The translations under genes were made by a program, and so were the position numbers. Under the pieces are notes generated by a model. It was not told the DNA's origin. It worked only from the letters and a program-made list of their open reading frames with translations, and did no database searches. This document shows positions 1 to 31,814 of a stretch of 64,000 bases of DNA, in pieces. This stretch comes from Bolinopsis microptera (Eukaryota), in contig NC_087080.1 in assembly GCF_026151205.1 (NCBI RefSeq), positions 4,938,797 to 5,002,796 on the forward strand. The letters are read 5' to 3'. The stretch's first letter is position 1. Each line of letters starts with the position of its first letter.

Positions 1-1519
1 AGATGAAGGTTGTATGGTCACTGGTCAGACGAAGTTATTGTTGTTTGTTGAAGCACGGAAAGGAACTCACACTGCAACGAGACTAAAAAACCCGTTGGAG
101 CTCGCTGTGCAGTATGTTGGAGAGATATGACCAGATAACTGATGCAGTGCACGGACGTTTAGATGACTTGGAGCTAGGCAATCTAAAACTGAATGTAGAA
201 GAGACTGAGTTAGCTCTCGCACCGTTCAAGATTGTAACTGAGTTTTTTTGTAAAAGAGGAAGCATGCTCGCTCAAGCAGAAGTGATTATTTAGTTTATTG
301 ACAGCAGGCTAGAAGAGATCTGAGATAGACTCGCCACTTTCTCGAACCCTTCTCGATAGGCTACGTACACGATATGCCAAGAGAAAGAACCTTCACTTCG
401 TATCGCTGGTAAAGTTATACTCGGACCCCGTTATTCTAGATGAAGATGTAGGACAAGAATACAGAATGATCACAAAGTCAACCTTGATACGTAACTCTAA
501 GTCTCTGCACAAGCGGTTGTTTAAGCAGAAAGAGACTAAAAGCGATTGAGCTTCGCAAGTAGTTCGACAATTGGTCCTCAGGACTCACAGGCGACTCCCA
601 CAATTTCAGATGCCAGATTCCAATCATATCCTGCTGACAAAATAATTATCAGACCTACATTAGGGCAGCGATTCGACTACGGTAGCAAGGACAGATACCC
701 TTGCACGGGAGATAGGATTAGGTCTGTTCACAGCTAACAGGCAGCAAACTTTTTTTTTAAATTTTAAAAAGCAATAATTGTCTTTATATCTGTACTCATT
801 TTAATTTTTAGGTTCAATTACAAAAATGAAAGCTAAACAATTGGTCGAATGTATCAGTATAATTCCACTAAATTGTGTGAAGCGTTGCTAATGCTATGGA
901 ATGAATCCAGCTATAGAGCTATAGTTTGTAGTTCTTCTTCCATTGATACCGTTGAAATGGCTTACGATTAACGAATGTAAGTTATGAAGAATCATGAGTG
1001 TGGCCGTATTTACTTTTTTAGTTCATTTACAAAGATAATTTTTGTTCAATCAGACAAATCGGTACGATGAAAAATTGAAATAAATGATTTATACGACTTA
1101 GGTCAACATAAAAATGTTTAAAATAAAATACACATCAACAAACATCCGCAATTTCAACCTTTACCATCTAATCATAATGCAGCAACGTAATTCTATCCTG
1201 TATGAGTGTAAAGCAATGATAATGCACCAACCCACAATAATACTACATGGTTAAAAAAGGGAAAGACAAACCCTGGAGTGAAAATTCTTAAAAGCATGAG
1301 AGCTGGAAACTTTAAACTATGTTAAGCACGTGCAGTGTGAACAGGGGGTCGGCCGTCGGATTCCGAAAATTCCAGAATCCTCCCATGAAAAAATATATAT
1401 ATATATTTTTTCATATATATATACTTTTATATATAAAAGTTATTTCATTCACTCTAGGATCTGTCGTGTGTGGCAAAGCTGATATTCAGTGTCGTATAAA
1501 ACATGGGATATGACTTACT

Positions 1520-2110
1520 TGACTTGACTTTAGGCGGGTAGTGTTCTCCACAGCTTTCTGTCCTCCATCAGTCTAGCTATCACATCTACTGACTTCAGCC
1601 CAGTTTCTGCTTTCAGGTTATCTAGTAATGTTAAGTAAGGTAGCTCCCTGTTAGTATGCCCATGACTCGGCTTCCAGATATGCTGCTTTCAACGACTATA
1701 AGAACTAGAAGGCATGGAGTGACAAACTGCCTCTAAACAAACGTCTAATACTGTACAATGCTTTAGTCGTATCGGTTCTTATGTTCAACTTCAACTCATC
1801 CTGCTGGGCAGTCCTCAAACTATTCCTTATTCCTCAAGAAACTAAATGCTTTGAATATAAAGTACCCAGGAGTCATCTCCGACAAAAACTTGTATAAAAT
1901 TAAACGCTGCAATCATCGCAGCGTTTAATTTCAGTGCAATGCTTAACCATTGTCAGAAAAGGTGGACCGAAAAGGTGGAGAATGTTAGGACATGTTTTGC
2001 GGGGTCCTGTTGACGGACCAGCGTTTTCCTCCCTCATTTTTGCCATCGATACACCGGATTTACCAGCCAGAAGAGGAAGACCGTAAAGCAATTTATTTTC
2101 ACTGATTGTG
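1520..2110 (+). mobile_element. 3'-terminal fragment of an RTE-like non-LTR retrotransposon (RT C-terminal tail, internally deleted)
   Basis: Plus-strand translation gives ...KLPLNKRLILYNALVVSVLMFNFNSSCWAVLKL... and ...KRWRMLGHVLRG...PARRGRP. This matches the C-terminal tail of the RTE-like ORF at 33194-35437 (KLKLYEALVTSVLLYNCSS...ARWKMLGHVLRSGDD...GRRGRP). The frames are broken, so it is a decayed copy. Confidence 0.45.
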
Positions 2111-3862
2111 TAATTATCCCTTGTTTAGAACGTTTATTCAATAAATTTAATATTATAATCATTCCTTTTCTTACAGCTTTGTGTTAATTTTATTGTAATT
2201 TTTACTGCAATATGTGTCAAACCTGAATCATTTTTTAAACTTCCGGGTGTTTTTCCCCACTTAATCCATAACCCATATAAGGATAACGATGAACAACTGA
2301 ATAGAATTATTCCTGAGAAGCTGACTTATTATTGAAAACTAACCGGGGCTTCTGCACATAATCGGCAATGGCATAACACATACCTTAAAAACATTTTTAT
2401 CGAAGAAATTTCCGGAGCTTTTTCTGGAAATATTCAAAATTGACGTTACAACTTGCAGCAATTGTAGCAATTTTCATTTCTCATCGCTTTCTAATAATTT
2501 TTCTGAGAACTTCTTTCCCTACATTCCCATCAGAAGCTGAATCCACACCATGAAAAATCCAGGCTATGGCGGGGTAGGCTGGTACCACTATATACCTGAT
2601 CTGTGTACCTGATCAACTTTTAGTGCTTGGACCCCATCGCATGCTGACGAATGAGAATGGCCCTTCTGATGTGATATTCATTTGTTGAGAACTCTTTAAG
2701 TTTAATTTAGTATAGTTGGCTAAAATCTTCATAAAACTTGCATAATTTACGATAAACGTTCTAGTTTTATCTTAGAGTCGGCCGAAATTCCTTCGAAACA
2801 AATAACTCGACCTCAATTTTTAGATATAAGAAAATGAAGTAAATATGTTGTCCACATTAACAATACATCACATATTATCGACTACTAAGGTAACCTCAGT
2901 TAACCTCAGTTATACCTCAGTTATACACCCAAGCAAAAGCAACACCACTTGGCGGGAAGGGGAATCTGGTCAGAAAATAGTTCATAAAGAGATTAATTTA
3001 AAGCCAATTCATGCAACTGATACGCAAGAAGTGGTCAAGAGGTAAAACTTTAATCAGCAAAACTATTACTTTATCATACTAATATGTTAACAAAGCGTTA
3101 TCCATAATTTACTATATGTTCCATTGTGTGTATAACTAGCTAACAAGATTATTAGTATAAACATATTAAAGTTAAAAGTGAAATTCCGAGAGTTTGAATA
3201 TTCTGCAGTCCTAATGTCAATGATAGGTTGACTTGGAATTTAGTATTAAGGGAGGTATAAGTTAAACATTAACTGGATATATTATATTCTACAAAGGCAA
3301 AACTTTAACCATGTTATGGATCAGTAACGGAAGTTATATCAAGTTATGCAACAAGCGATAGTGCTCATTATATACAGGATTTTTATACAAACAAGGAAAT
3401 TAATAATCGATTATTACGAGCAAGCTGAAATGAAATCTCAACAGCTGAAATTGTTTAACCGACAATGTATTTAAATCGTATTAATTGTTTTCACAATTAA
3501 AAATCAAGCTTAACAAGATTATTAAATCAACGAAAAATGGAGAATAATACGATCCACGTATCATTTTCTAGATACTTATTTTTCCGTCATTCATCGTCAT
3601 TACCTCTAAACAGGCAGACGAAGCCAAGCTACAAAAAGTCATACTCATAATTTAGTGACATCCCTTCAGCAGGAATATCAAAGATGTATTACCCAATCAT
3701 TACGTGAATAGTCTATATTAATATATCATACAATTTGTAACACAAATCATTTTAACTGTTTTTAATCTGAAACGTAACGTTAATCAATCCCACAGAGAGT
3801 TCATGCATGCATCTAAGTTAAGATAACGGGGAAGGGAGCGAGGGAGTTACTTCAGCGAAGGT

Positions 3863-21210: not shown

Positions 21211-21299
21211 TAAATCTAGTCTAGGTAAACTATAGGTAAAAATATAACCCCAGCTAGCCTACTCCGCTTTCATCTACGGAACCTCCAAAAGATGGAATT

Positions 21300-22682
21300 T
21301 TGTTTGCCGTACAACCCCAGGGATTTCCGACCATCTGAAACTCTTGGAATATTGTGTCAAGGAAGACTTTATACCAGCCATTATGGGCAAAAGGTTTGTG
21401 CCTGATCAAATCAGAAAAATAGCTTCACTTCCTGCAAGAATGGGCGGGCTGAGCATTCCAGACTGCACATCAACAGCAGAGATGGAGTACACTAACTCAG
21501 TAAATGCTACAAAACAGCTCACAGAAGCAGTTTTTCAACAGCTTACTACTTTCCAACTAAACGGAGAACTGCAGCATGACATCATAAGTGAAGTAAAGAA
21601 GCGTAAGGAAGAGCTTTACAAACACCAACGAGAAACTATTACGAATGAGGTATCCCCATCAACACAAAGGCAATTAGAACTCCTTAGTGAAAAAGGAGCA
21701 TCCATTTGGTTATCCACACTCCCTCTAAAAGCATGTGGGTACGTCCTTAACAAACAAGAATTCTTTGATGCCCTCTCACTCAGATATAATCTTACACTGT
21801 CTACAGCTAACAGAAGTCCCCTATGTGTATGTGGAAATCAAAATCATATCAACCATAATCTAACCTGCAAAATCGGAGGCTACGTTTCACTTAGACACAA
21901 TTCACTAAGAGATACAATAGCTGAACTCCTAACCACTGTTTGCAAAGACGTTGAAACAGAACCCCAGCTTCTCTCCGTTCCTCACACACTTGAACTATCT
22001 AATGGAACAAATAGACAGGATGGTGCAAGACTGGACATCAGTGCGAGATCGTTTTGGTCGCCGCTAGACAGGGCATTCACAGATGTAAGGGTACTTCACC
22101 CTCAAGCCCAGTCCAACAGTGACAAGAGCATCTCGCAGATGTACCAATCTCACGAGAAAAGCAAAAAACGTGAGTACAATGACAGAGTCCTCAATATTGA
22201 AAAGGCTACCGACCTTCACGCCACTGGTGTTCAGTACTACAGGAGGAATGGCAACTGAGGCTTCACAGTTCCTAAAACATCTCGCTGAAAAGATCAGCCT
22301 AAAGAAAGGCCAACGGTATTGTGATGTGATGTCATTTGTCAGACGCAGACTGCGTTTTGATCTACTCAGAACCTGTATAATCTCTATCAGGGGGTACAGA
22401 GGTACCAGAACCCTTCCACCCACGGCAATAAGTGATTTGGACCTTAACCTGATCAACACTCTTAAACCCTAAAAGGTCATGGAGTGCTTGTTGGATGGGG
22501 GTTTTAACTGCTTTTTGTTGTGATGTGATTTAGTGGATTTTATATATATTTATTACAAAGGGTTTTATTTTTACCTCAGTTTTTAAATTTGTAACATTTT
22601 TACAGAATTTTTATATAGGGTCATTGCTATATTATGTGTATATTGTTTGAATATTTTATTTAAAAAAAAAAAAAAAAAAAAG
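21300..22682 (+). mobile_element. 5'-truncated non-LTR retrotransposon copy ending in a poly(A) tract; C-terminal domain with a CCHC motif plus PD-(D/E)xK-like (R2-type restriction-like endonuclease) signature
   Basis: ORF 21344-22258 carries CVCGNQNHINHNLTC (C-x-C-x-H-x3-C), then LRHNSLRD, ETEP, ARLDISARSFW and FTDVRVLHP, followed by K-rich sequence. The frame-shifted continuation at 22119-22472 (FSTTGGMATEASQFLKHLAEKISLKKGQRYCDVMSFVRRRLRFDLLRTCIISIRGYRG) aligns with the intact copy at 61364-62104. An A22 tract lies at 22661-22682. Related fragments are at 54617-54985 and 61364-62104. Confidence 0.55.
21344..22472 (+). pseudogene. Frameshifted ORF of the RLE-type LINE copy (two overlapping frames, 21344-22258 and 22119-22472)
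   Basis: Comparison with the minus-strand copy at 61364-62104 shows that one continuous protein is split here by a frameshift. Confidence 0.55.
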
Positions 22683-23234
22683 GTAAAAATATAATATTAA
22701 TCATAAGCTAAAATGTACTAATCTTTGTATTCTAAATGGGGAAAAAGAAGAAACATTGTCAGTCAGTCGAGAAAATTGTCAGTCAGGCTATATGGCAGCT
22801 TTGTAGATGTTGTGACTATGCTAGTAGTGGTCCCAGGCTTGCGACTGGAATTGCGGTGTTAAATCGATTTAATGGTATACCAACGATCCACCTCCCACTT
22901 GTTGTTTGGTACTTAGCATTAATAGTGTTAGCTGTAGCCATTTATAGCAAGAATCTTAAAACTAAAGGGGATGACAAGGAAAAGAGGAAGGAAAAAGAAT
23001 AACGGAACAAACAATTAATTAAAGTATTTATAGGAGCATTAGATATTGTAATTACAAGCTTCAATAATAAATCACTGACTAAAACTTCTAATTAAAATGA
23101 CACTTGGTACGCTCGCCCATTTTCACTGGTCAGTCTGAACTTCGGTTTAGCACGTTGTACACTTATTCACCTAAGTTTCAGAATTTGTTCAGTTTAGCAG
23201 AGTTAGTACCCGTGTTTCAATAAATCAAAAGATA

Positions 23235-25472
23235 TCAGGGGAGTTCTTTAATAATGTTATGGTCATCTAGAATACCGAACTTCCTGAAAACGTTATCATA
23301 TTTCCTCAGACAACGTTTAATGCCTTTAATCAGTCTATCACGGCTATATCCTCTATCAATTAGAATTTTGAATATTTTGTGAAGATGGGAGGTAAAGATA
23401 TCCAATCTAGTGCAAACATTACCATATCTAAGAACTTGACTTGAAAAAACGTTGTAGTCAACCTCGGTTGGGATGTTACTGTGAGGAAATGTAAGGGATA
23501 CAACATGAAAATTAAAATCATCAGTTTTGTTGTACACTGATATTTCTAGTCCTTCTGTGGAAATATTAATATTTAAATCAAGGTAGTTAATGATTTTATT
23601 ATTGGAACCAGCTCGCTCCATCTCCAATGAATTAGGATAAATATCTTTAATCAATTGATGAAAGTAAAGGTAGTTAATAATAGATAAATCGTCAACATAT
23701 CGTTTATTATTGGATAGTATCTTTGCTAATCCCATTTTCTTTTCCTGAAGTAAACGTTTCATATAATTAAATTCCTTTTTGCCAACAGTGAGATCAGCTA
23801 TAGGGGAACTTGAATTCCCACCCATAGGAATACCCTTGGTTTGTATGAATACAATCCCACCGAAGACGACATAAGTGTTATAAATAATAAATTTAACAGC
23901 CTCTTTTAGGTCATCTTGACTAAAGCAGGCATGAGAATCATAGGTTTTATTGGAAAAGAAACATGTATTACTGTCTCTTTTAGAAATACAAATATATCTA
24001 TTACGGTCTGAAAATATTAAATCAACAACTTCATTAATCATATTCTCTACTTCAATCAAGTCTAATCTGGTATAAAGAGTAGTAAAATCATATACTTGTA
24101 TATTATAAACATCGCTATTTTTGATAGCTTCAAGGAATTCACTTGAGGAATCTATGCTCCAAAACATGTTTATACCGCTGTTGTTGTAGATTGCCTCGCA
24201 GTATTTCTTGAAGTATTTCCTCAAAAGTTTCAGACAACAGTTAACTTGGACGTTAAATTGTTTCGTAACGCAAAAACGGGCACCTGCAATGAACCTCGCC
24301 TTGTAAGGGTTCTTATGAAGCTTAGGGTTCCAGAAGATGCGTGCTAGTCGCAAGTTTTTATCTTCAACTTGTACATTAAATCTCTCCTTTAGACTCTCAG
24401 ATATTTTATTGACATAATGAGTCTCGTCTTCGCTACAGGGTTTATATGTATCATTACCTATACATTCTAGAGTATTAGGTTCAAAACCCATTTCATTGAC
24501 AAGAGTTTTTACATAAAACTTTTTACAAATAAATGAAAAATTACCAGAAGCTTTGTCGATACTACAAATAATGTATTTACTTTTCAGCAATTTAAGACTT
24601 CTTTTAACATCATCTTTTTCCAGTGTGTTTTCTTTTATTTCAAATGTTTTAGGAAAGTTTTTCTTGTAATATTCAATACGATTGGAAACTATTGATAACA
24701 CTTTTTCCTTCCAAGCGCTGAACTTTACTTCTTTTTGACAGTACTTTCTACTTTTTGATTTTATAAATTTATCGACAGCTTCGGTAACTGACATATATAT
24801 CTCATCTGGAGATTTAAATGTGGGAATTCTGTATTTACAACCGTAGGAAAGTACTTCCCTAAGTTCAACATTATCAACAATATCTAAATTACCAGTAACT
24901 ACATGTCCATGAGGAGGATAATTGAAAGGGGAGGAGTGACAATCGCATGGACTACCTAAAATAGATTTAATATCAGAAATAGAAAGTTTCTTTAAGAATG
25001 AAGCATAGTTACAAATAGAAAGACTTCTAGGATCATTATACTCATAATAAATCTGTAATGGTGTAAAAGACTGAATCAAAATGGGAAGCAAATCAATGAC
25101 TGAAGTGTCAGAGAAAATAGATTTTAGGTTAAGATTATCAATGAATTTGCAATTAAATGGAACAATTATAAATTCTCTATTACTGGATTCAGATTTGTTC
25201 TGATGGTATTTGGGGGAAAATGTTGAACAGAAAGAGGAACATACGTTGTAAATCAATCCTGAATTATTTTGACTCAAAGAGTAGAGAGTGTCTAAATCTG
25301 ATAAGCTATAACATTTTAATGTTTTGTATATGGAATGTTCTGAAGAGATGTTATCTTTCAGCCTGTTAATATCAGACTCTATGGTATCGAGAGACTTCTT
25401 AGGCTGAACTTTCTTCTTTCCATTCCCTCTGCCACGTTTGTATCGAGCAATCTGTCCACTAAAATAATTCAT
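23235..25472 (-). CDS. Penelope-like element (PLE) reverse transcriptase ORF, 745 aa
   Basis: It has the PLE-type N-terminal DKG-like motif (YIICSIDKASGNFSFICKKFY), the RT motif 1-2 KLHKNPYKARFIAGARFCVTK (compare K-I-H-K-x3-P-x-R-P-I-V-S of PLEs), GIPMGGNSSSPIADL, and the YxDD box RYVDDLSII. Confidence 0.6.
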   Translation of the reverse strand: MNYFSGQIARYKRGRGNGKKKVQPKKSLDTIESDINRLKDNISSEHSIYKTLKCYSLSDLDTLYSLSQNNSGLIYNVCSSFCSTFSPKYHQNKSESSNREFIIVPFNCKFIDNLNLKSIFSDTSVIDLLPILIQSFTPLQIYYEYNDPRSLSICNYASFLKKLSISDIKSILGSPCDCHSSPFNYPPHGHVVTGNLDIVDNVELREVLSYGCKYRIPTFKSPDEIYMSVTEAVDKFIKSKSRKYCQKEVKFSAWKEKVLSIVSNRIEYYKKNFPKTFEIKENTLEKDDVKRSLKLLKSKYIICSIDKASGNFSFICKKFYVKTLVNEMGFEPNTLECIGNDTYKPCSEDETHYVNKISESLKERFNVQVEDKNLRLARIFWNPKLHKNPYKARFIAGARFCVTKQFNVQVNCCLKLLRKYFKKYCEAIYNNSGINMFWSIDSSSEFLEAIKNSDVYNIQVYDFTTLYTRLDLIEVENMINEVVDLIFSDRNRYICISKRDSNTCFFSNKTYDSHACFSQDDLKEAVKFIIYNTYVVFGGIVFIQTKGIPMGGNSSSPIADLTVGKKEFNYMKRLLQEKKMGLAKILSNNKRYVDDLSIINYLYFHQLIKDIYPNSLEMERAGSNNKIINYLDLNINISTEGLEISVYNKTDDFNFHVVSLTFPHSNIPTEVDYNVFSSQVLRYGNVCTRLDIFTSHLHKIFKILIDRGYSRDRLIKGIKRCLRKYDNVFRKFGILDDHNIIKELP

Positions 25473-25526
25473 AACCCGATCTTGGGAGATGTTGCCCGTT
25501 CCTTTCTTCTTGTCATTAAGAATGAC

Positions 25527-25595
25527 ATGTAGTTACTGGTAATTTAGATATTGTTGATAATGTTGAACTTAGGGAAGTACTTTCCTACGGTTGTC
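25527..25595. repeat. 69-bp inverted duplicate of an internal RT-ORF segment (24838-24905), placed between the GIY-YIG remnant and the RT ORF
   Basis: cattaagaatgacatgtagttactggtaatttagatattgttgataatgttgaacttagggaagtactttcctacggttg is the exact reverse complement of 24838-24905. Confidence 0.8.
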
Positions 25596-25910
25596 ATTAA
25601 GACCAAGAGGGAATGCTGTCCCAAGCTTCTCTATCCAGTAATCCTCCAGGAGAAGTAAATCATTTTTGACATCGGTGGACATGTCAGAATCAACATAATC
25701 TACAATCTGTATGGAAGCATCTGAGAAGACGTGACCAGGAATATTAAAATGTTCATATAAAAATGTGGATGATTTGGCTTTGACACAATTTCTGTGGCCA
25801 TTGACTCTTTTATGAAGTGGTTGAGTTGTTTCTCCAACATATTGTTTTTTACAGGTAGAACAGGTAATAACATAAATAACATTATTAGTTTTACAATTAA
25901 ATATAAAATT
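25545..25910 (-). other. GIY-YIG endonuclease domain remnant lying upstream (N-terminal side) of the PLE RT, in a different frame (Naiad-like permuted PLE, decayed)
   Basis: Minus-strand translation gives KFIFGHTNFIFNCKTNNVIYVITCSTCKKQYVGETTQPLHKRVNGHRNCVKAKSSTFLYEHFNIPGHVFSDASIQIVDYVDSDMSTDVKNDLLLLEDYWIEKLGTAFPLGLNDN. The classic GIY...YIG...R...H...E..W core is all present. There is no Met, a stop lies upstream, and the frame differs from the RT. Confidence 0.65.
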
Positions 25911-26216
25911 TGTATGTCCAAAGATAAACTTTCAACACTACTATATAACAAATAATTTGAGGACCCCCAGTGGGAACTAATGCCTCGGTAAATGTAACGA
26001 CCATTACAGGTTGTATGTCAATGTAAATGGTTGTTGCATGATAAAGTTATCTTAAAGACATCCTAAGGACTATCAGACATCGATTTTTAAAGCAGTTTAC
26101 TCCCATCTATCACCTAAAGATTATCAGACATCATTTATCCTTATCCTCCGGAGTGCTACAAAGGTACTGTAATCATTAACTAAATTTCGAACAGTAGCAT
26201 CTTTTTGTGATAAACT

Positions 26217-27880
26217 ATGTCTAGAATACCAGAACTTGGCTCAAGAGATTACAATCTGAGATATCGAGGGAATGCTGTTAAATTCCCCAGTAATGGCTCT
26301 CGTCCTACTGATAAATGTTCAAATTGTTTAACTCTATTAAGAGAGAATGATCGTCTTCGTCGGCAAATTTCTATTCTCTATAAACAATTATCAGAAAGTG
26401 ACAGTGCACTCAAAGTTCCCCTCAGCAATAGTTCACTTGTCTCTGTGTTGCCCCAGGTACCTGATCACTGTGAACATTCTATCAAAGTTCCCCTCAGTAA
26501 TAGCTCATCCTCGCATCTTGTTTCTGAGTTAACCCAAGAGCTATCCAAATTAGCAGAAGACAGTGAACATTCAGCAGAAATTATCAATTCGGAAAATCCC
26601 AAACACTCTGTAAATGGTGTCAATGGTGTGACCAACTCTATCATTCCATACCAAGATTTGAGTCGAGGAGTTTTTCAGTTTGTTGACACTGCCAAGTTAG
26701 ATATAGAAACCCACTATACTCATGACTTTGAGAATAGGACAGTTGCATATTATGGGGACTTTCCCTACGCTTACAATGGAGGCTTTCATAACACAAGGCG
26801 TCAAGGCCAGTAGCAGACAATCCCTACCTAAAGTCTATTTTAGAACGATTACGCTCACAGTTCCCAAAGTTGAAATTCAATAGTGCTATGATTACCAAGT
26901 ATAGAAATGGTCAGCAAGGAATTCCCTTTCACTCGGATGACGAGAGGTCAATTTCACCAGGCTCCATGATCTCCACCATCTCTTTAGGGGCTACTAGAGT
27001 CCTAAGCTTCAGATCCAAACTTAGAGCTCATATTGCTGACCTTACCCTCTCCCATGGTGACATAATGAATATGACCAGACAATCCCAGACCAGCTTTGAA
27101 CACAGCCTCATCCAGGACAAGTCTGAAACCATGAGAATAAGCATTACTCTGCGCCTAATTGATGGCAGCGCAACCATATCTACTCTGTCTGATGTTTCCA
27201 GTCAAGTTAAGAACACTGAACCCTCGGCCCCTAAGACTAGATCAATAGAACATTCTGGTAAATCTTTGTGTGTCTACATTAGCTCTAGTATGTTCTCCAA
27301 ATTAGAGGGAGAAAAGCTATCGTCCAAACAACATGAGGCACATGTATTCAGCTACCCTGGTGCCACAGCCAATGCAATCAATGAACGGTTTCAATCAGAT
27401 GTAAGAAAAGACACTCTTAATACCAATAATGTGAAAAGCATTGTACTTATGTGTGGTACAAATGACGTGGACTCTATCCTGAACAGCCCTCGCAACATGA
27501 GGACTAAACTTCTGTGCCCTGATAGTTTTTCTGGTGATGCTAGAGCTCTTGACTTTACAAACAATTGTATTGAAAAACTTGTACTTTTCCTTCACAAGTG
27601 GGCACCTGGAGCTGATATTAAAATTGTTAACTTATTACCTCGGGAGAGTTTCTCCAGAAACAAGGTTATAACAGATATCAATGGATGTATATCAAATCTG
27701 CAAAGAAAATACACCTATGTAAAACTGCTCTCAACCGAGACAAATCGTTTCTTGTTTAGTGATAAGAAAGGCTTTAGAAAATCGTCATTTTTTAGTAGTT
27801 ATGGAGAGGATAATGTCCATCTCAATGATTATGGCATAGTTAAACTAGCAAGGCACTTGAAGTATCATGCACACCATTAG
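26217..27880 (+). pseudogene. LINE ORF1 (interrupted at 26814-26869): coiled-coil N-terminus plus AlkB-like 2OG-Fe(II) dioxygenase domain plus SGNH/GDSL esterase domain
   Basis: AlkB N-part in ORF 26217-26813: RTVAYYGDFPYAYNGGFH. AlkB core in ORF 26870-27880: FNSAMITKYRNGQQGIPFHSDDE...ISTISLGATRVLSFRS...LTLSHGDIMNMTRQSQTSFEHSL...RISITLRLI (HxD...H, a second His, R-x-S-x-T-x-R). SGNH blocks: VYISSSM (I), SYPGATANAI (II), LMCGTNDV (III), DNVHLNDYG (V). Esterase ORF1s are known from CR1-like LINEs. The two ORFs are separated by stops and a frameshift. Confidence 0.6.
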
Positions 27881-27952: not shown

Positions 27953-28760
27953 TTACTTTGGGCGATGCTCGATCGAAATCTCCTCCACTCTACGTCTCCA
28001 GATGGTTCTGTCGCACATAACTGTTCGGAGATCTTCTACCCGCAACCCTGTGTCCCTGGCTACGGTGTCAAGAAAAGAGAGTGGTCTCCTCCCACGCCTG
28101 AACTGTGGCAGCCGCCAAGGAAGGATGGTAGAGATGACCTGGTCTGAAGCTCTCATGCAATGCCCAGCAAATCTGGCACGTCTCTGTGCGACGATGGTGG
28201 AGATGGAAGGGAGGTCACCATAGATTTGCTTTAGGGTTGGATGCTTCTTCCATGAAAGATTCCTGGCTTTCATTAGGAGCCTGGTGTAGCACCCGTCGAG
28301 ACGCTTCTCAAACTGCTTGTTCAAGGTCCAGGTTTCTGAGCCATACAGCAGAACAGGTTCGATGCATGCTCTGAAGAACTTGACTTTCAGCTGGTCAGAA
28401 ATGCCAGAGGTCCATACCTTCTGCAGTTTGATACAGGCTGACCAAGCCATGCCTTTCCTGGTGTTGAAGTCCTTCCTGCTCTCTGCAATATATGAGCCCA
28501 AGTATTTGAAGTCATCGACCTGCTTGATCTGGTAACCGGATATTGAGTTCACGGGGGCAGCATCAGGAATGTTGATGGTCATGTATTCGGTCTTGGAAGC
28601 ATTCATCGCAAGTCCGACATGTGCTGCTGCAGTCTCTAAATCCGAGAGCAGTTGCTGGACTTGCTCTATGGTATCGGCAGTCAAGGCCAGGTCGTCAGCG
28701 AAGTCAAGATCTGTGACTCTGACCGCAGGTACTCTACGACATCCAGACAAATACAACCTG
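27953..28760 (-). mobile_element. Nested 5'-truncated RTE-like LINE fragment (RT C-terminal half), GC-rich, inserted between ORF1 and ORF2 of the host LINE
   Basis: The 267-aa ORF carries FADDLAL (RT motif C), SKTEYM, YLGSYI and the tail ...KLQKVWTSGISDQLKVKFFRACIEPVLLYGSETWTL...RRARFAGHCMR. It is homologous to the 33194-35437 ORF tail. Its GC content is much higher than the flanking sequence. Confidence 0.7.
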
Positions 28761-28837: not shown

Positions 28838-30403
28838 ATGACAAATTTTAATAATGCAGCTGATAGGTTTCACAACCTCTGCATTGGTCACTGTAACATT
28901 CAAGGAGGGCTTCTTAATTTAGCTAAAAGTAATGAACTTTCCCAACTTATTAGAGATCATAAATTAGACATACTTTCCCTAAATGACATGAATCTTAATG
29001 ATACTATTGACACAGACACCATAAATATTCCTTCCTCCTTCAACCTTATGCGATGCGACAGGCCAAACAGTTCTAGTGGTGGTTGTGGCTTAATGATAAA
29101 CAAAAAACTAGCTTACACAGAATTAGTTATGGATAGTAAGCTTGATAACATTGAAGCATTATGGGTGAAGCTTAAGAATAGCAAGATCAATGTTTGCTGC
29201 TTCTATCGCTCTGGAAATTATTGCAGTGTTGATAACTTTATTGAGTACATTCATTTTTGCATGAAAAAATTGAATGGGAAAAAGGTTATCTGGATTGGGG
29301 ATATAAACATTGACCAGAATAATATCTCATCCACCCAGTACAAAAAATTAGATATGACCTTGAGATGTTACAATCTAGTTCAAACCATTCAAGGGATAAC
29401 TAGAGTTGCTAAACGTGGAGACAATTTTACCCAGACTACTATTGATGTAATATTCACTAACTGTTATGCAGATTTTGTTCAATCTTCTGTTCTTGATGAA
29501 CGTATTGGGGATCATCAAGCTATTATGTGTGAGATAGATTGTAAAGTACCTATAGCTCCTAAATTTGAAAAGGTTGAAATTAGAAATCATTGTAAACGTA
29601 ATGTTAAACAATTCTTAGACTATCTAGATACCTGTTCTGATTACAGTCCACTATTGGAAAGTACAGATGTTGAAGCTATCACTGCTGGCCTTTGTCATCA
29701 TATTGAACAGGCATATGCAACCTTCTTCCCTTGCAAGACCATAGAAAGGCATGAAAAGTTCATACATAAACCTTCTACTGAACTTTTAAATGCCATTAAT
29801 CATACACATTTTCTTCTAAAGAAATTCCGTAAAAAGAAGGATAAGAGAGACAATGGAAATTGCAATAAATGTGGTACATGTAGCAAATGTATAAAGTGTA
29901 ATGAGGCCTGGGATTGCTACAAGATTCAGAGAAATATTAGAAATAAATTAGCTAAAACCTGCAAAAAGGCTAATGTAATCGATGATCTACAAGTTAAAAG
30001 TGCCAAGAATGATCTTAAAGGGATATGGAAAACTATCAAACTGGCATCAAATATGACCCCTGGTACAAATAATTGTCAAACTATCAATGAGAATGATCCT
30101 GAGCTATTTAACTTTCATTTTGCAAATGTTGGATCAAGATTACAAAATCAGGCGCCCAATATTGAAAGAGTTAGTTTTACTGATTTTTTACCTCCTAGAA
30201 CTTCTAACATCTCATTTGATAGATTCCAAGAAATAAATGAAACTGATATCCTAATGTATGTCGAAACGCTCAAGAATGACAAGGCCTCATATGACGATGT
30301 GCCTCTATTTTTACTTAAGCAAGCTGTACCACACATAGTTGAACCACTGACCCATATTGTCAATTTGAGCCTTAATACAGGTGTTGTACCAACCCGTTTG
30401 TAA
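28838..30403 (+). CDS. LINE ORF2, N-terminal part: apurinic/apyrimidinic-type endonuclease (EEP) domain plus linker
   Basis: IGHCNIQGGLLNLAKSNELSQLIRDHKLDILSLNDMNL...IWIGDINIDQNN...TRVAKRGDNFTQTTIDVIFTN are the exo-endo-phosphatase motifs of LINE APE endonucleases. Confidence 0.7.
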   Translation: MTNFNNAADRFHNLCIGHCNIQGGLLNLAKSNELSQLIRDHKLDILSLNDMNLNDTIDTDTINIPSSFNLMRCDRPNSSSGGCGLMINKKLAYTELVMDSKLDNIEALWVKLKNSKINVCCFYRSGNYCSVDNFIEYIHFCMKKLNGKKVIWIGDINIDQNNISSTQYKKLDMTLRCYNLVQTIQGITRVAKRGDNFTQTTIDVIFTNCYADFVQSSVLDERIGDHQAIMCEIDCKVPIAPKFEKVEIRNHCKRNVKQFLDYLDTCSDYSPLLESTDVEAITAGLCHHIEQAYATFFPCKTIERHEKFIHKPSTELLNAINHTHFLLKKFRKKKDKRDNGNCNKCGTCSKCIKCNEAWDCYKIQRNIRNKLAKTCKKANVIDDLQVKSAKNDLKGIWKTIKLASNMTPGTNNCQTINENDPELFNFHFANVGSRLQNQAPNIERVSFTDFLPPRTSNISFDRFQEINETDILMYVETLKNDKASYDDVPLFLLKQAVPHIVEPLTHIVNLSLNTGVVPTRL

Positions 30404-31814
30404 AAAAGCTAGAGTAACTCCCATCCATAAGGCAGGAATGAAAGATGATCCTAATAATTACAGGCCAATATCCATCCTTCCACTTATAGGAAAACTTATA
30501 GAATACTTTGTCGGCAAGCAACTCACTGATTACATGGAAGAGAACAAATTTTTCATCCGGCATCAATATGGCTTTCGGAAAAATCACTCCACAACTTATT
30601 TGATGTACGATCTGATGGACGAAATATATATGAGTAAATCTAAGTCTTATAAACCAGGAATCATCTTTCTTGATCTTAAGAAGGCCTTTGACACAGTGAA
30701 TCATGAAATATTGCTTCAAAAATTGGCATATTATGGAATTGGTGGCATTGCTTTAACCTGGTTTAAGAACTTCTTATCTTGTAGATATCAATGCACAAGG
30801 ATCAATGGCAAAATAAGCTCATTTTTAGAAGTTCTGAGTGGTGTACCACAAGGAAGCATCATTGGGCCTATATTATTTAGTATCTTCATAAATGACATCA
30901 TTTATGCCTGTAACCTATCTAAGCCCTTTCTATTTGCAGATGATGGTGCACTATTCTTTGATCAAACCTGCAGAAGCACATTTATAAACATGAAAATAGA
31001 ACTTATGACAATCTTTAAATGGCTCAGTGTTAATAAATTATCACTCAATGAAAAGAAGACTGAATTCCTATTGTTTGATTCTGTTGATCAACATGATGAA
31101 TTAACCATTGAATGTAATGAGGTAACTTTCACAATCAAGGAGTGCAAAGAGACAAAATATCTTGGCCTCATTCTAGATAGTAAATTAAACTTCAAAAGCC
31201 ATGTAGATTATATTATTAGGAAGGTCATGAAGAGAATTGGTGCCATGTATAGAAGCAAAGCACTGCTACCCATTAAATATAGGAAAATGTTTGCCAATGC
31301 ACTCATGTTGCCACAATTCGATTATTTAGACACGATCTATTGTAGAGCTGGCAAGACAAAACTTGCTGAACTTGACACTCTGTACAAAAAGGTAGCCAAA
31401 ATAGCTCTCAACGTTCCACAAACAGAGAGCAGCCTTAATGTTTATAGAGACATGAAATGGTTACCACTCCATCTTAGACGACAACTCCATCTGTCTAATT
31501 ATATGTTTAGAATCATCCATGACAATTGTCCTACAAACTTTATGAACAAATTTAGTTACATATCAGGAGGTAGTAGGAGCGGCGAAAGCTGCAACCTATA
31601 TGTTAATAGATCAACATCACATAAAAACTTTCAATACTTGGGGGCAAAATGTTGGAATAATGTTCCAACAGATCTACGAAATCTGCCCGATGTTAAAAGC
31701 TTAAGTGATTCGTATAAGAAACAGCTACTCTCATCTATAACAACAGACCCTAATTACACCGTCGACAATTCATATGACAAATTTTACACTGCAATCATAG
31801 TCGACGATAACTAA
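30381..31814 (+). CDS. LINE ORF2, reverse transcriptase part (frame differs from the APE part; overlap 30381-30403)
   Basis: YRPISILPLIGKLIEY, GFRKNHSTT, IFLDLKKAFDTVNHEILL, SGVPQGSIIGPILFSIFIND and FADDGALFF are the LINE RT motifs 1-5 (CR1/L2-like). The APE-to-RT frame change indicates a decayed copy or a frameshift. Confidence 0.75.
   Translation: MLYQPVCKKARVTPIHKAGMKDDPNNYRPISILPLIGKLIEYFVGKQLTDYMEENKFFIRHQYGFRKNHSTTYLMYDLMDEIYMSKSKSYKPGIIFLDLKKAFDTVNHEILLQKLAYYGIGGIALTWFKNFLSCRYQCTRINGKISSFLEVLSGVPQGSIIGPILFSIFINDIIYACNLSKPFLFADDGALFFDQTCRSTFINMKIELMTIFKWLSVNKLSLNEKKTEFLLFDSVDQHDELTIECNEVTFTIKECKETKYLGLILDSKLNFKSHVDYIIRKVMKRIGAMYRSKALLPIKYRKMFANALMLPQFDYLDTIYCRAGKTKLAELDTLYKKVAKIALNVPQTESSLNVYRDMKWLPLHLRRQLHLSNYMFRIIHDNCPTNFMNKFSYISGGSRSGESCNLYVNRSTSHKNFQYLGAKCWNNVPTDLRNLPDVKSLSDSYKKQLLSSITTDPNYTVDNSYDKFYTAIIVDDN

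Follow-up and report, generated by a model that had tools for sequence, protein, structure and literature searches.

We analysed a stretch of 64,000 nucleotides of Bolinopsis microptera (contig NC_087080.1, positions 4,938,797 to 5,002,796; hereafter the window) and found it to contain, at 21220..25928 on the minus strand, a young but dead copy of a Naiad-type Penelope-like retroelement (PLE). The 3' untranslated region (UTR) of the copy contained, on the sense strand, a predicted twister ribozyme motif of type P5. We give this reading a probability of about 0.85. The window was AT-rich (GC about 33-44%) and dense with open reading frames (ORFs) of retroelements. The original prediction, made from the letters of the window, had placed a permuted PLE, with a GIY-YIG endonuclease (EN) upstream of the reverse transcriptase (RT), at 23100-25950. 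This span was too narrow, since the element covers 21220-25928 and includes a nested fragment of 1.43 kb that resembles a long interspersed element (LINE).

Domain architecture and affiliation of the element

The permuted order of the domains was borne out by the intact relatives and by the nuclease of the window copy, which lies upstream of the RT in the same frame. The copy was found to be solo and truncated at its 5' end, as judged by blastn against the related loci L001-L006 and the end sequences (loci are designated by L numbers and proteins by P numbers). It was ~98.2% identical in blastn to the family consensus L003, a circularly assembled tandem with a unit of 3748 bp. The 5' start of the window copy, at 25928, corresponded to position 678 of this unit; the copy had neither the ~485-nt 5' UTR nor codons 1-54, among which those of the CX5CxxC finger lie. 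In L003 a single open frame (516-3296) contained CX5CxxC, GIY-YIG with CCHH, a lysine/arginine-rich (KR-rich) block, CxC, GxKY, DKA and the RT, in this order.

In the window copy, the remnant of the GIY-YIG endonuclease (VIYVITCSTCKKQYVGETTQPLHKRVNGH...EDYWIEKLG) was present at 25605..25898 on the minus strand, with the CCHH motif in the form ITCSTC...HKRVNGH, and matched Pfam PF01541 with E 5.2e-7 and 30.3 bits against a cut-off of 22.6. An intact ORF of 745 amino acids, encoding the linker and the RT, was found at 23235..25472 (minus strand) and was 98% identical to P0001. This ORF contained, all on the minus strand, the KR-rich block RYKRGRGNGKKK (25410-25445), the CxC motif PCDCH (24936-24950), the GxKY motif YGCKYR (24828-24845), the DKA motif IDKASGN (24540-24560), RT1-2 with KLHKNPYKARFIAGA (24279-24323), RT3(A) (24069-24095), RT4(B) (23802-23837) and RT5(C), the YVDD motif, as RYVDDL (23685-23702). 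The motifs on which the assignment to a PLE-type RT had been based, namely a DKG-like motif (here DKA), KLHKNPYKARFIAGA and YVDD, were all present, and the ORF ended in ...IIKELP* with no GIY-YIG at its C-terminus, as had been stated.

The 745-aa ORF had 112 homologues at E ≤ 1e-3, the best with E = 0, well past anything that chance would give. Eleven copies ~98% identical at the DNA level were fetched; L001-L006 encoded a 98%-identical protein, and the closest copies came from marine metagenome and Logan assemblies. The intact relatives, of 887-1025 amino acids, contained a CX2-5CxxC finger, the GIY-YIG with CCHH, the KR-rich block, CxC, GxKF/Y, DKA and RT motifs 1-7. In P0010, P0011, P0094 and P0075, Pfam placed the GIY-YIG domain at residues ~50-170 and the RT at ~590-800, and in every twister-positive locus with enough 5' sequence the EN was upstream of the RT. 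The finger was found as CX5CxxC (CNGRGCLTC) in L003, L087, L088 and P0011 and as CGSQRCKTC in P0010. In an alignment of 14 sequences, C176 and C178 of CxC, D306, K307 and A308 of DKA, and the catalytic residues of the RT were invariant.

The element had been called Naiad/Chlamys-type, and the Naiad half of this name was retained. Chlamys lacks CCHH in its GIY-YIG; the window copy has it, and Chlamys was therefore excluded. A canonical PLE with endonuclease (EN+; Penelope/Poseidon, Neptune, Nematis, Hydra) was also rejected, as there was neither a C-terminal GIY-YIG nor a hammerhead here. The element shared with the published Naiad clade (Craig, Yushenova, Rodriguez & Arkhipova 2021, Mol Biol Evol, PMC8557442) the N-terminal GIY-YIG with CCHH, the upstream CX2-5CxxC finger, the KR-rich block, CxC, GxKF/Y, and DKA in place of DKG. 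The spacer between RT3(A) and RT4(B) is probably long in both, and the unit length of ~3.7 kb lies within the published 3.4-4.4 kb. Heavy 5' truncation, tandems forming pseudo long terminal repeats (pseudo-LTRs), the lack of a canonical hammerhead, and, in relatives, putative selenocysteine insertion sequence (SECIS) elements were likewise common to both. It differed from the published clade in three respects: a twister motif was present in the 3' UTR/pseudo-LTR of this family and of about 20 relatives, the two insertion sites seen here were not (TA)n microsatellites, and the conserved ORF of the family consensus had no AUG at its start.

Partial or full head-to-tail tandems (pseudo-LTRs), which the original prediction had proposed to look for, were found in L002, L003, L007, L039 and L040. 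The search for hammerheads, proposed at the same time, found no canonical one in the scanned element or its relatives: there was no match at E ≤ 1 in the window element or L001-L003, none at E ≤ 5 in 17 relatives, and none at the gathering score anywhere in the window. SECIS-like (SECIS_1) matches began at the ORF stop in L034 (3505-3567), L040 (5356-5418) and L084 (3367-3428), and 55 nt past it in L069 (1913-1977); they scored 28-30 bits, under the gathering score of 35. Published selenoprotein Naiads have the SECIS at or shortly past the ORF stop (PMC8557442).

The main part of the 3' UTR of the window copy was at 22682..23234 (minus strand), and the rest, 21220-21247, lay past the nested insertion. 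A second, independent 5'-truncated copy was found in L091, a contig of 170 kb, and ended within 2 nt of the 3' terminus of the window copy (...TTTACCTAGA[TT]; ...TTTACCTAGATT). As both copies stop there, the element truly ends at this position. Neither solo insertion was flanked by (TA)n microsatellites (window, ≤21219 and ≥25929; L091), which concerns n = 2 sites and a preference that is a tendency only.

Fold of the reverse transcriptase

The AlphaFold model, built on the 14-sequence alignment, had a predicted local distance difference test score (pLDDT) of 85.5 and a predicted template modelling score (pTM) of 0.73. The 16 best PDB matches of the model were all telomerase reverse transcriptases (TERT), with E 7.6e-12 to 4.6e-7, and these ranked above the RTs of DRT2, group II introns, retrons and LINE-1. 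Together with the motif set of Craig et al. 2021, this fold ranking of the predicted structure supports an RT of the PLE/telomerase kind. The model contained 85 residues between the aspartate of motif A (D462) and the glycine of motif B (G547), with extra predicted helices and strands; in Naiads the stretch from RT3(A) to RT4(B), the insertion in fingers, is ~20 amino acids longer than in canonical PLEs (PMC8557442). Pfam found no RVT_1 in the window ORF at E ≤ 1, and sub-threshold RVT_1 matches were present in weaker relatives only. When PDB sequences were searched with a profile of the 14-sequence alignment, no relative came up, so that the fold search was needed to see TERT.

The twister motif in the window copy

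The twister ribozyme, of which type P5 is one form (Rfam RF02684, clan CL00120), was reportedly described by Roth et al. in 2014. Characterised twisters are pseudoknotted and are fast as monomers. The Rfam scan of the element gave a single match, to the full Twister-P5 model, at 22892-22833 on the sense strand of the 3' UTR (28.7 bits, E 6.5e-4 on a 701-nt search). The motif as a whole was placed at 22825..22900 (minus strand, the sense of the element) by the Rfam model, by our own covariance models R1 and R2, and by covariation. It was found to read GGUG-GAUCG-[P1 hairpin]-UAA-CACC-GCAAUU-CCAG-UCGCAAGC-CUGG, enclosed by AGUGG...CCACU.

In this motif, P5 is formed by 22895-22899 with 22826-22830, P2 by 22889-22892 with 22855-22858, and P4 by 22845-22848 with 22833-22836, closing the loop UCGCAAGC at 22837-22844. 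The internal loop GAUCG occupies 22884-22888 and is followed by the closed P1 hairpin region at 22862-22883. Pseudoknot T1 joins 22853-22854 to 22837-22838 and pseudoknot T2 joins 22884-22886 to 22841-22843; these partners are assigned by analogy with published twister structures. The predicted cleavage site is between U22861 and A22860, 248+ nt past the stop codon and 195 nt before the 3' end of the element. The motif agreed with type P5 in P2, P4, P5, the closed P1, both pseudoknots, the N^AA site, the GA of the internal loop and the AAG of the P4 loop. It differed in that the window family had GAUCG/UCGC for GAGGG/UCCC, a compensated change of T2; several relatives had AC...GU or CC...GG for the GC...GC of T1, and some had an extra P3 hairpin.

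Distribution and covariation of the twister in relatives

The motif was sought with R1 and R2 in 80 related loci and four contigs of closer relatives. It was found in about 20 loci of at least 10 lineages, whose proteins were 81%, 47% and down to about 30% identical to the window ORF. With R2, 25 of the 25 matches at E ≤ 1 in 353 kb were on the sense strand, either downstream of the ORF or within the preceding copy of a tandem, and the motif lay 30-454 nt past the ORF stop. The full Rfam Twister-P5 model matched in the window, L003, L087, L065 and L070; the scores of L065 (27.5), L087 (26.7) and L070 (36.3) were below the gathering score of 37.6, and that of L062 (38.8) was above it. The group of L034, L040, L084 and L069 contained the twister 276-306 nt past the stop, with the extra P3 hairpin. 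Twister-negative loci gave only matches of ≤12 bits, which fell on either strand and within ORFs. The relatives L010, L012, L089 and L090 (58-63% identity) yielded no twister, hammerhead or other ribozyme, also with the filters off, and neither did L092 and L093. The motif is thus a feature of part of the clade and is not universal. A strict regular expression and a home-made descriptor had recovered only this family and L065, with a false lead in L055, L063 and L066; they were too narrow, and covariance models were needed for the other lineages. L044 (2844-2933) contained a twister-like motif with P5, P2, UAA and the P4 stem, in which a hairpin of 17 nt replaced the CAAGC loop; this motif has either decayed or represents a variant structure.

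In the four helices of 18 aligned sequences, 95.5% of the cells were paired and 14 of 15 pairs were changed on both sides. None of 500 shuffles was as good, and slid partners were paired in 40-51%. As this alignment was fitted to the tested helices, the two pseudoknots, which lie outside the covariance model, are the stronger test; they were 96.2% paired, against 21-49% for slid partners. The first pair of T1 was GC in six sequences, AU in five and CG in four, with no mismatch. The middle pair of T2 was CG, GC, UA or UG, and the T2 partners varied jointly (GAUCG/UCGC, GAUUG/UCAA, GACCG/UUGG, GAGUG/UCAC, GAGGG/UCCC).

Outside the motif, identity between the 3' UTRs of the 98% family and the 81% family was mostly ~40-60%; windows of 40 nt ranged from 28 to 83%, and some of those close to the 3' end reached 71-83%. 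In the 40-nt window on the twister core, identity was 98%. Of the seven positions of the motif that differed between these two families, six belonged to one compensated swap of a hairpin tip, from GGUAUACC to GACGCGUC.

Weighing the twister reading

Several observations count against a working twister in this element. The window match, at its 28.7 bits, was under the Rfam gathering score of 37.6. Its internal loop was GAUCG and not the usual GAGGG, and an alternative pairing of GAUCG with CGAUU could extend P1. By minimum free energy, the region folded no better than shuffled sequences (z = -0.81), a comparison that tells nothing about an RNA with pseudoknots. Of the relatives with at least 400 nt of 3' flank, ~half gave no match to the motif, the families of 58-63% identity among them. 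Finally, both solo insertions, in the window and in L091, keep the 195 nt downstream of the predicted cut.

These points bear first on the possibility that the motif is a conserved structured RNA of the 3' UTR, serving for example RT binding or stability, which derives from a twister or has converged on it and no longer cleaves. The GAUCG loop and the sub-threshold score fit such an RNA, as does L044, in which the stems are kept and the CAAGC loop is missing, and 195 nt retained past the cut in integrated copies are what an uncleaved retrotransposition template would leave. However, the core nucleotides (the GA of the loop, the N^AA site, the T1/T2 partners and the AAG in the P4 loop) are kept down to ~30% protein identity, and both pseudoknots covary, as selection for the catalytic fold predicts. 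L062 is above the curated threshold of Rfam, and L069, L077 and L078 have the canonical GAGGG/UCCC. We therefore regard a non-cleaving RNA as unlikely.

Still less likely, in our view, is a separate small non-autonomous element, similar to a retrozyme or a short interspersed element (SINE), that has repeatedly parasitised the 3' UTRs of Naiads. The twister is patchy across the RT tree, Craig et al. have floated the idea that hammerheads are mere parasites of PLEs (PMC8557442), and in Schistosoma, LINEs of the RTE type have twister variants at their 5' ends (PMC8501958, PMC7761336). Against this, the strand was identical in every positive lineage and the position was similar (30-454 nt past the stop); the flanks of the motif were family-specific UTR sequence with no target duplications, and similarity of the motif tracked relatedness of the RT (window/L087/L014; L034/L039/L084/L037; L070/L062/L068/L052).

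A resident twister of the element is the reading that we prefer, and the following course of events would agree with it. The family encodes one polyprotein of zinc finger, GIY-YIG endonuclease, KR-rich/CxC linker and telomerase-like RT. By analogy with other EN+ PLEs, the nuclease would nick the target, and target-primed reverse transcription by the RT would start at the 3' end of the element RNA. Its products would be copies that share one 3' end and lack 5' sequence, and also partial head-to-tail tandems (pseudo-LTRs). A 5' truncation of varying extent together with a constant 3' end, as seen in the window copy and L091, is the pattern that target-primed reverse transcription yields. The predicted twister would cleave transcripts of the element at U22861^A22860; where a transcript is tandem or read-through, two cuts would free an RNA of unit length with 5'-OH and 2',3'-cyclic-phosphate ends. 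The same role has been proposed for the hammerheads in the pseudo-LTRs of canonical PLEs (PMC6765202). As 195 nt beyond the cut are kept, the RNA that was reverse-transcribed did not end at the twister cut, which argues against a simple role in forming the 3' end; the template would have been uncut, multimeric or circular. The domain order, the motifs, the fold of the model, the truncation, the insertions, the tandems of the relatives, and the conservation and covariation of the twister are observations; the mechanism of retrotransposition, the catalytic activity and the role of the ribozyme we infer.

Insertions and decay of the window copy

The window copy was truncated on insertion, and later gained an inverted duplication of 81 bp that stops the ORF, an insert of 82 bp, and the nested LINE fragment. 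The 81-bp insertion, at 25510..25590 (minus strand), was specific to this copy and was absent from L001-L009 and L013. It is in frame (27 codons) and contains two TAA stops. The GIY-YIG had been taken to be out of frame; it was found in the same frame as the RT ORF, parted from it by this insertion. The minus-strand translation 5' of the ORF reads ...NCKTNNVIYVITCSTCKKQYVGETTQPLHKRVNGHRN...EDYWIEKLGTAFPLGLND, then 27 codons with two TAA, then KKKGTGNISQDRVMNYFSGQIARYKRGRGNGKKK... into the ORF. At the insertion point the window copy had 81 extra bases relative to the open junction GGTCTTAATGACAAGAAGAAAGGA of ten ~98% copies from other assemblies, and the EN-RT junction FPLGLNDKKKGTGN was uninterrupted in these 10 copies.

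Three parts make up the insertion: 71 nt that repeat 24837-24907 in inverted orientation, the trinucleotide ATT, and the second copy of a target of 11 bp. The target duplication, CTTAATGACAA, flanked the insertion at 25591-25601 and 25510-25520. Repeat search and blastn showed an exact inverted match of 71 nt between 25524-25594 and 24837-24907 (76 nt at 97%), the first 4 nt of which, ACAA, overlapped the target as microhomology. An inverted copy of 69 bp of RT sequence had been noticed between the two domains; the inverted copy is indeed there, with an exact length of 71 nt, and its source, 24837..24907 (minus strand), encodes the region just past CxC and through GxKY, a part of the linker and not of the RT core. 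From its sequence, the 81-bp insert may be a templated insertion, produced by a template switch or by break repair via the ACAA microhomology.

With these data, the arrangement of the window copy is very improbable as a junction of two tandem canonical PLE copies without any permuted ORF. PLEs do form partial tandems, as in the relatives L002, L003 and L007, and stop codons do lie between the EN and the RT here. However, the window stops are wholly inside the copy-specific insertion, and the same EN-RT junction is an open frame in the 10 copies of ~98% identity. The intact relatives of 887-1025 amino acids have the EN at ~50-170 and nothing past the RT, and the RT ORF stops 482 nt before the end of the unit, with no nuclease in that stretch. 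In the intact copies, which the original prediction had named as the check, the nuclease is N-terminal to the RT. The weakest of the alternatives, that the 71-nt inverted repeat serves the element as a long-range hairpin of RNA or DNA, has its arms of 97-100% complementarity 616 nt apart in its favour, but we give it next to no credence, as the repeat is confined to the window copy (absent from the 10 other ~98% copies and from L087), brings two stop codons, and has at its borders a target duplication of 11 bp and 4 nt of microhomology, as is typical of templated insertions.

The second insert was an AT-rich segment of 82 bp at 23012-23093 in the 3' UTR, absent from all other copies of the family including L091, and it had no obvious target duplication. 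The third, foreign to the element, was a nested, 5'-truncated fragment of a non-LTR (LINE-like) element at 21248..22681 on the plus strand, recognised by its poly(A), its target duplication and blastn. It contained 20 nt of poly(A) at 22662-22681 and was flanked by a 13-bp target duplication, TTATATTTTTACC, at 21235-21247 and 22682-22694. Its ORF of 304 amino acids (21344-22258) had no Pfam match.

Start of the open reading frame and 5' UTR in relatives

Five families with 62-98% protein identity were found to contain the peptide L[KR]RNGK.F.K..NKWV.P.N directly after an in-frame stop (L003, 513-545; L087, 590-620; L088, 38-70; L089, 637-670; L090, 418-450); this region is missing from the window copy. 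The stop was TGA in four families and TAA in one, was always followed by CTTA, and lay exactly at the site of the ATG of P0020. No ATG occurred in the five families until deep within the GIY-YIG domain. Leaky read-through of UGA-C, non-AUG initiation and ribozyme-linked initiation are candidates for the start of translation. Selenocysteine at this stop was rejected, as no SECIS matched in L001-L003 and the stop of one family is TAA. It was also rejected that the AUG comes from an upstream exon across an intron: the region past the stop was conserved as protein, and there was no AG acceptor at the boundary.

In families with identity as low as 62%, the 5' UTR contained a conserved hairpin, CAUGGCAGCCCCAUG, at ~100 nt from the ORF (L003, ~400-440; L087, ~480-510; L090, ~310-340). 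In one subclade, a conserved region of multiple hairpins was present ~900 nt upstream of the RT match (L063, ~790-900; L066, ~800-910; L055, ~100-215). Compensatory changes were seen in it between L063 and L055, for example CUUGGUCAGGG/CCCUGACCAAG against CAAGUCCAGGG/CCCUGGACUUG. It was rejected as a twister despite a match to the regular expression, and it had no Rfam match. L012 contained, at 347-487 upstream of its Naiad copy, a match to Metazoa_SRP (signal recognition particle, SRP) of 42 bits and E 2e-7, under the gathering score. It is probably an SRP-derived SINE, pointing to a metazoan host of that contig.

Neighbouring open reading frames

Beyond the 5' end of the element, at 26217-27880 on the plus strand, two adjacent ORFs of 198 and 336 amino acids were found. 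The 336-aa ORF began with the C-terminal half of an AlkB-type 2OG-Fe(II) oxygenase (PF13532, E 2.4e-16), and its tail resembled an SGNH/GDSL esterase. The pair lay just upstream of a LINE endonuclease and RT (28838-31814, plus strand), with an RT fragment on the minus strand (27953-28756) in between. Judging from the sequence, these ORFs may be an unusual ORF1 of a non-LTR element.

Comparison with known ribozymes of retroelements and implications

The pseudo-LTRs of canonical EN+ PLEs (Penelope/Poseidon, Neptune, Nematis, Hydra) contain hammerheads (Cervera & de la Pena 2014, cited through PMC8557442 and PMC6765202). The present element has in common with them a TERT-like RT and a GIY-YIG in one ORF, pseudo-LTR tandems, and, in sense orientation, a small ribozyme of self-cleaving class that lies in the pseudo-LTR or close to the 3' end. 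It differs in the reversed order of the domains and in the ribozyme, which is a minimal type I hammerhead (thought to be dimeric) in the canonical elements and a predicted twister here. The Naiads were reported without canonical hammerhead ribozymes; that report describes no ribozyme in them, and twister is not mentioned (PMC8557442). Twister variants in the Perere-3/RTE elements of Schistosoma mansoni (Liu et al. 2021, PMC8501958) are similar in that a ribozyme of the twister class is present in the transcript of a retrotransposon, with a proposed role in processing. Those of Perere-3 are truncated T-variants at the 5' end of a LINE, which use the target duplication as P1 and define the 5' end of the element (PMC8501958), whereas here a PLE is predicted to have a complete type-P5 twister within its 3' UTR, at a distance of 195 nt from its end. 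Twister is likewise missing from a 2026 preprint that deals with animal retrozymes and PLEs. No paper tying a twister to PLEs was found in a search that covered little of the subscription literature, and earlier publication is possible.

We put forward tentatively, at somewhat less than even odds, that the twister is the Naiad counterpart of the canonical-PLE hammerhead, and that a sense-strand ribozyme of the pseudo-LTR is functionally required in EN+ PLEs in general, its class differing by clade. If this were true, the AUG-less ORF would suggest cap-independent translation of a ribozyme-processed RNA, as has been proposed for R2 and Perere-3.

The element alone is ordinary, a dead copy and a further member of a clade described in 2021; the twister is the point of interest. 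As 195 nt lie beyond the predicted cut, the ribozyme cannot simply set the 3' end of the template, and models of PLE replication must accommodate this. The Naiad paper treated the missing hammerheads as a notable contrast to all other EN-bearing PLEs and argued that ribozymes may be dispensable parasites of PLEs (PMC8557442). A conserved, covarying twister at the equivalent position would reverse the argument of dispensability for part of the clade, and would give the twisters of eukaryotes a second defined genomic context, besides one schistosome LINE.

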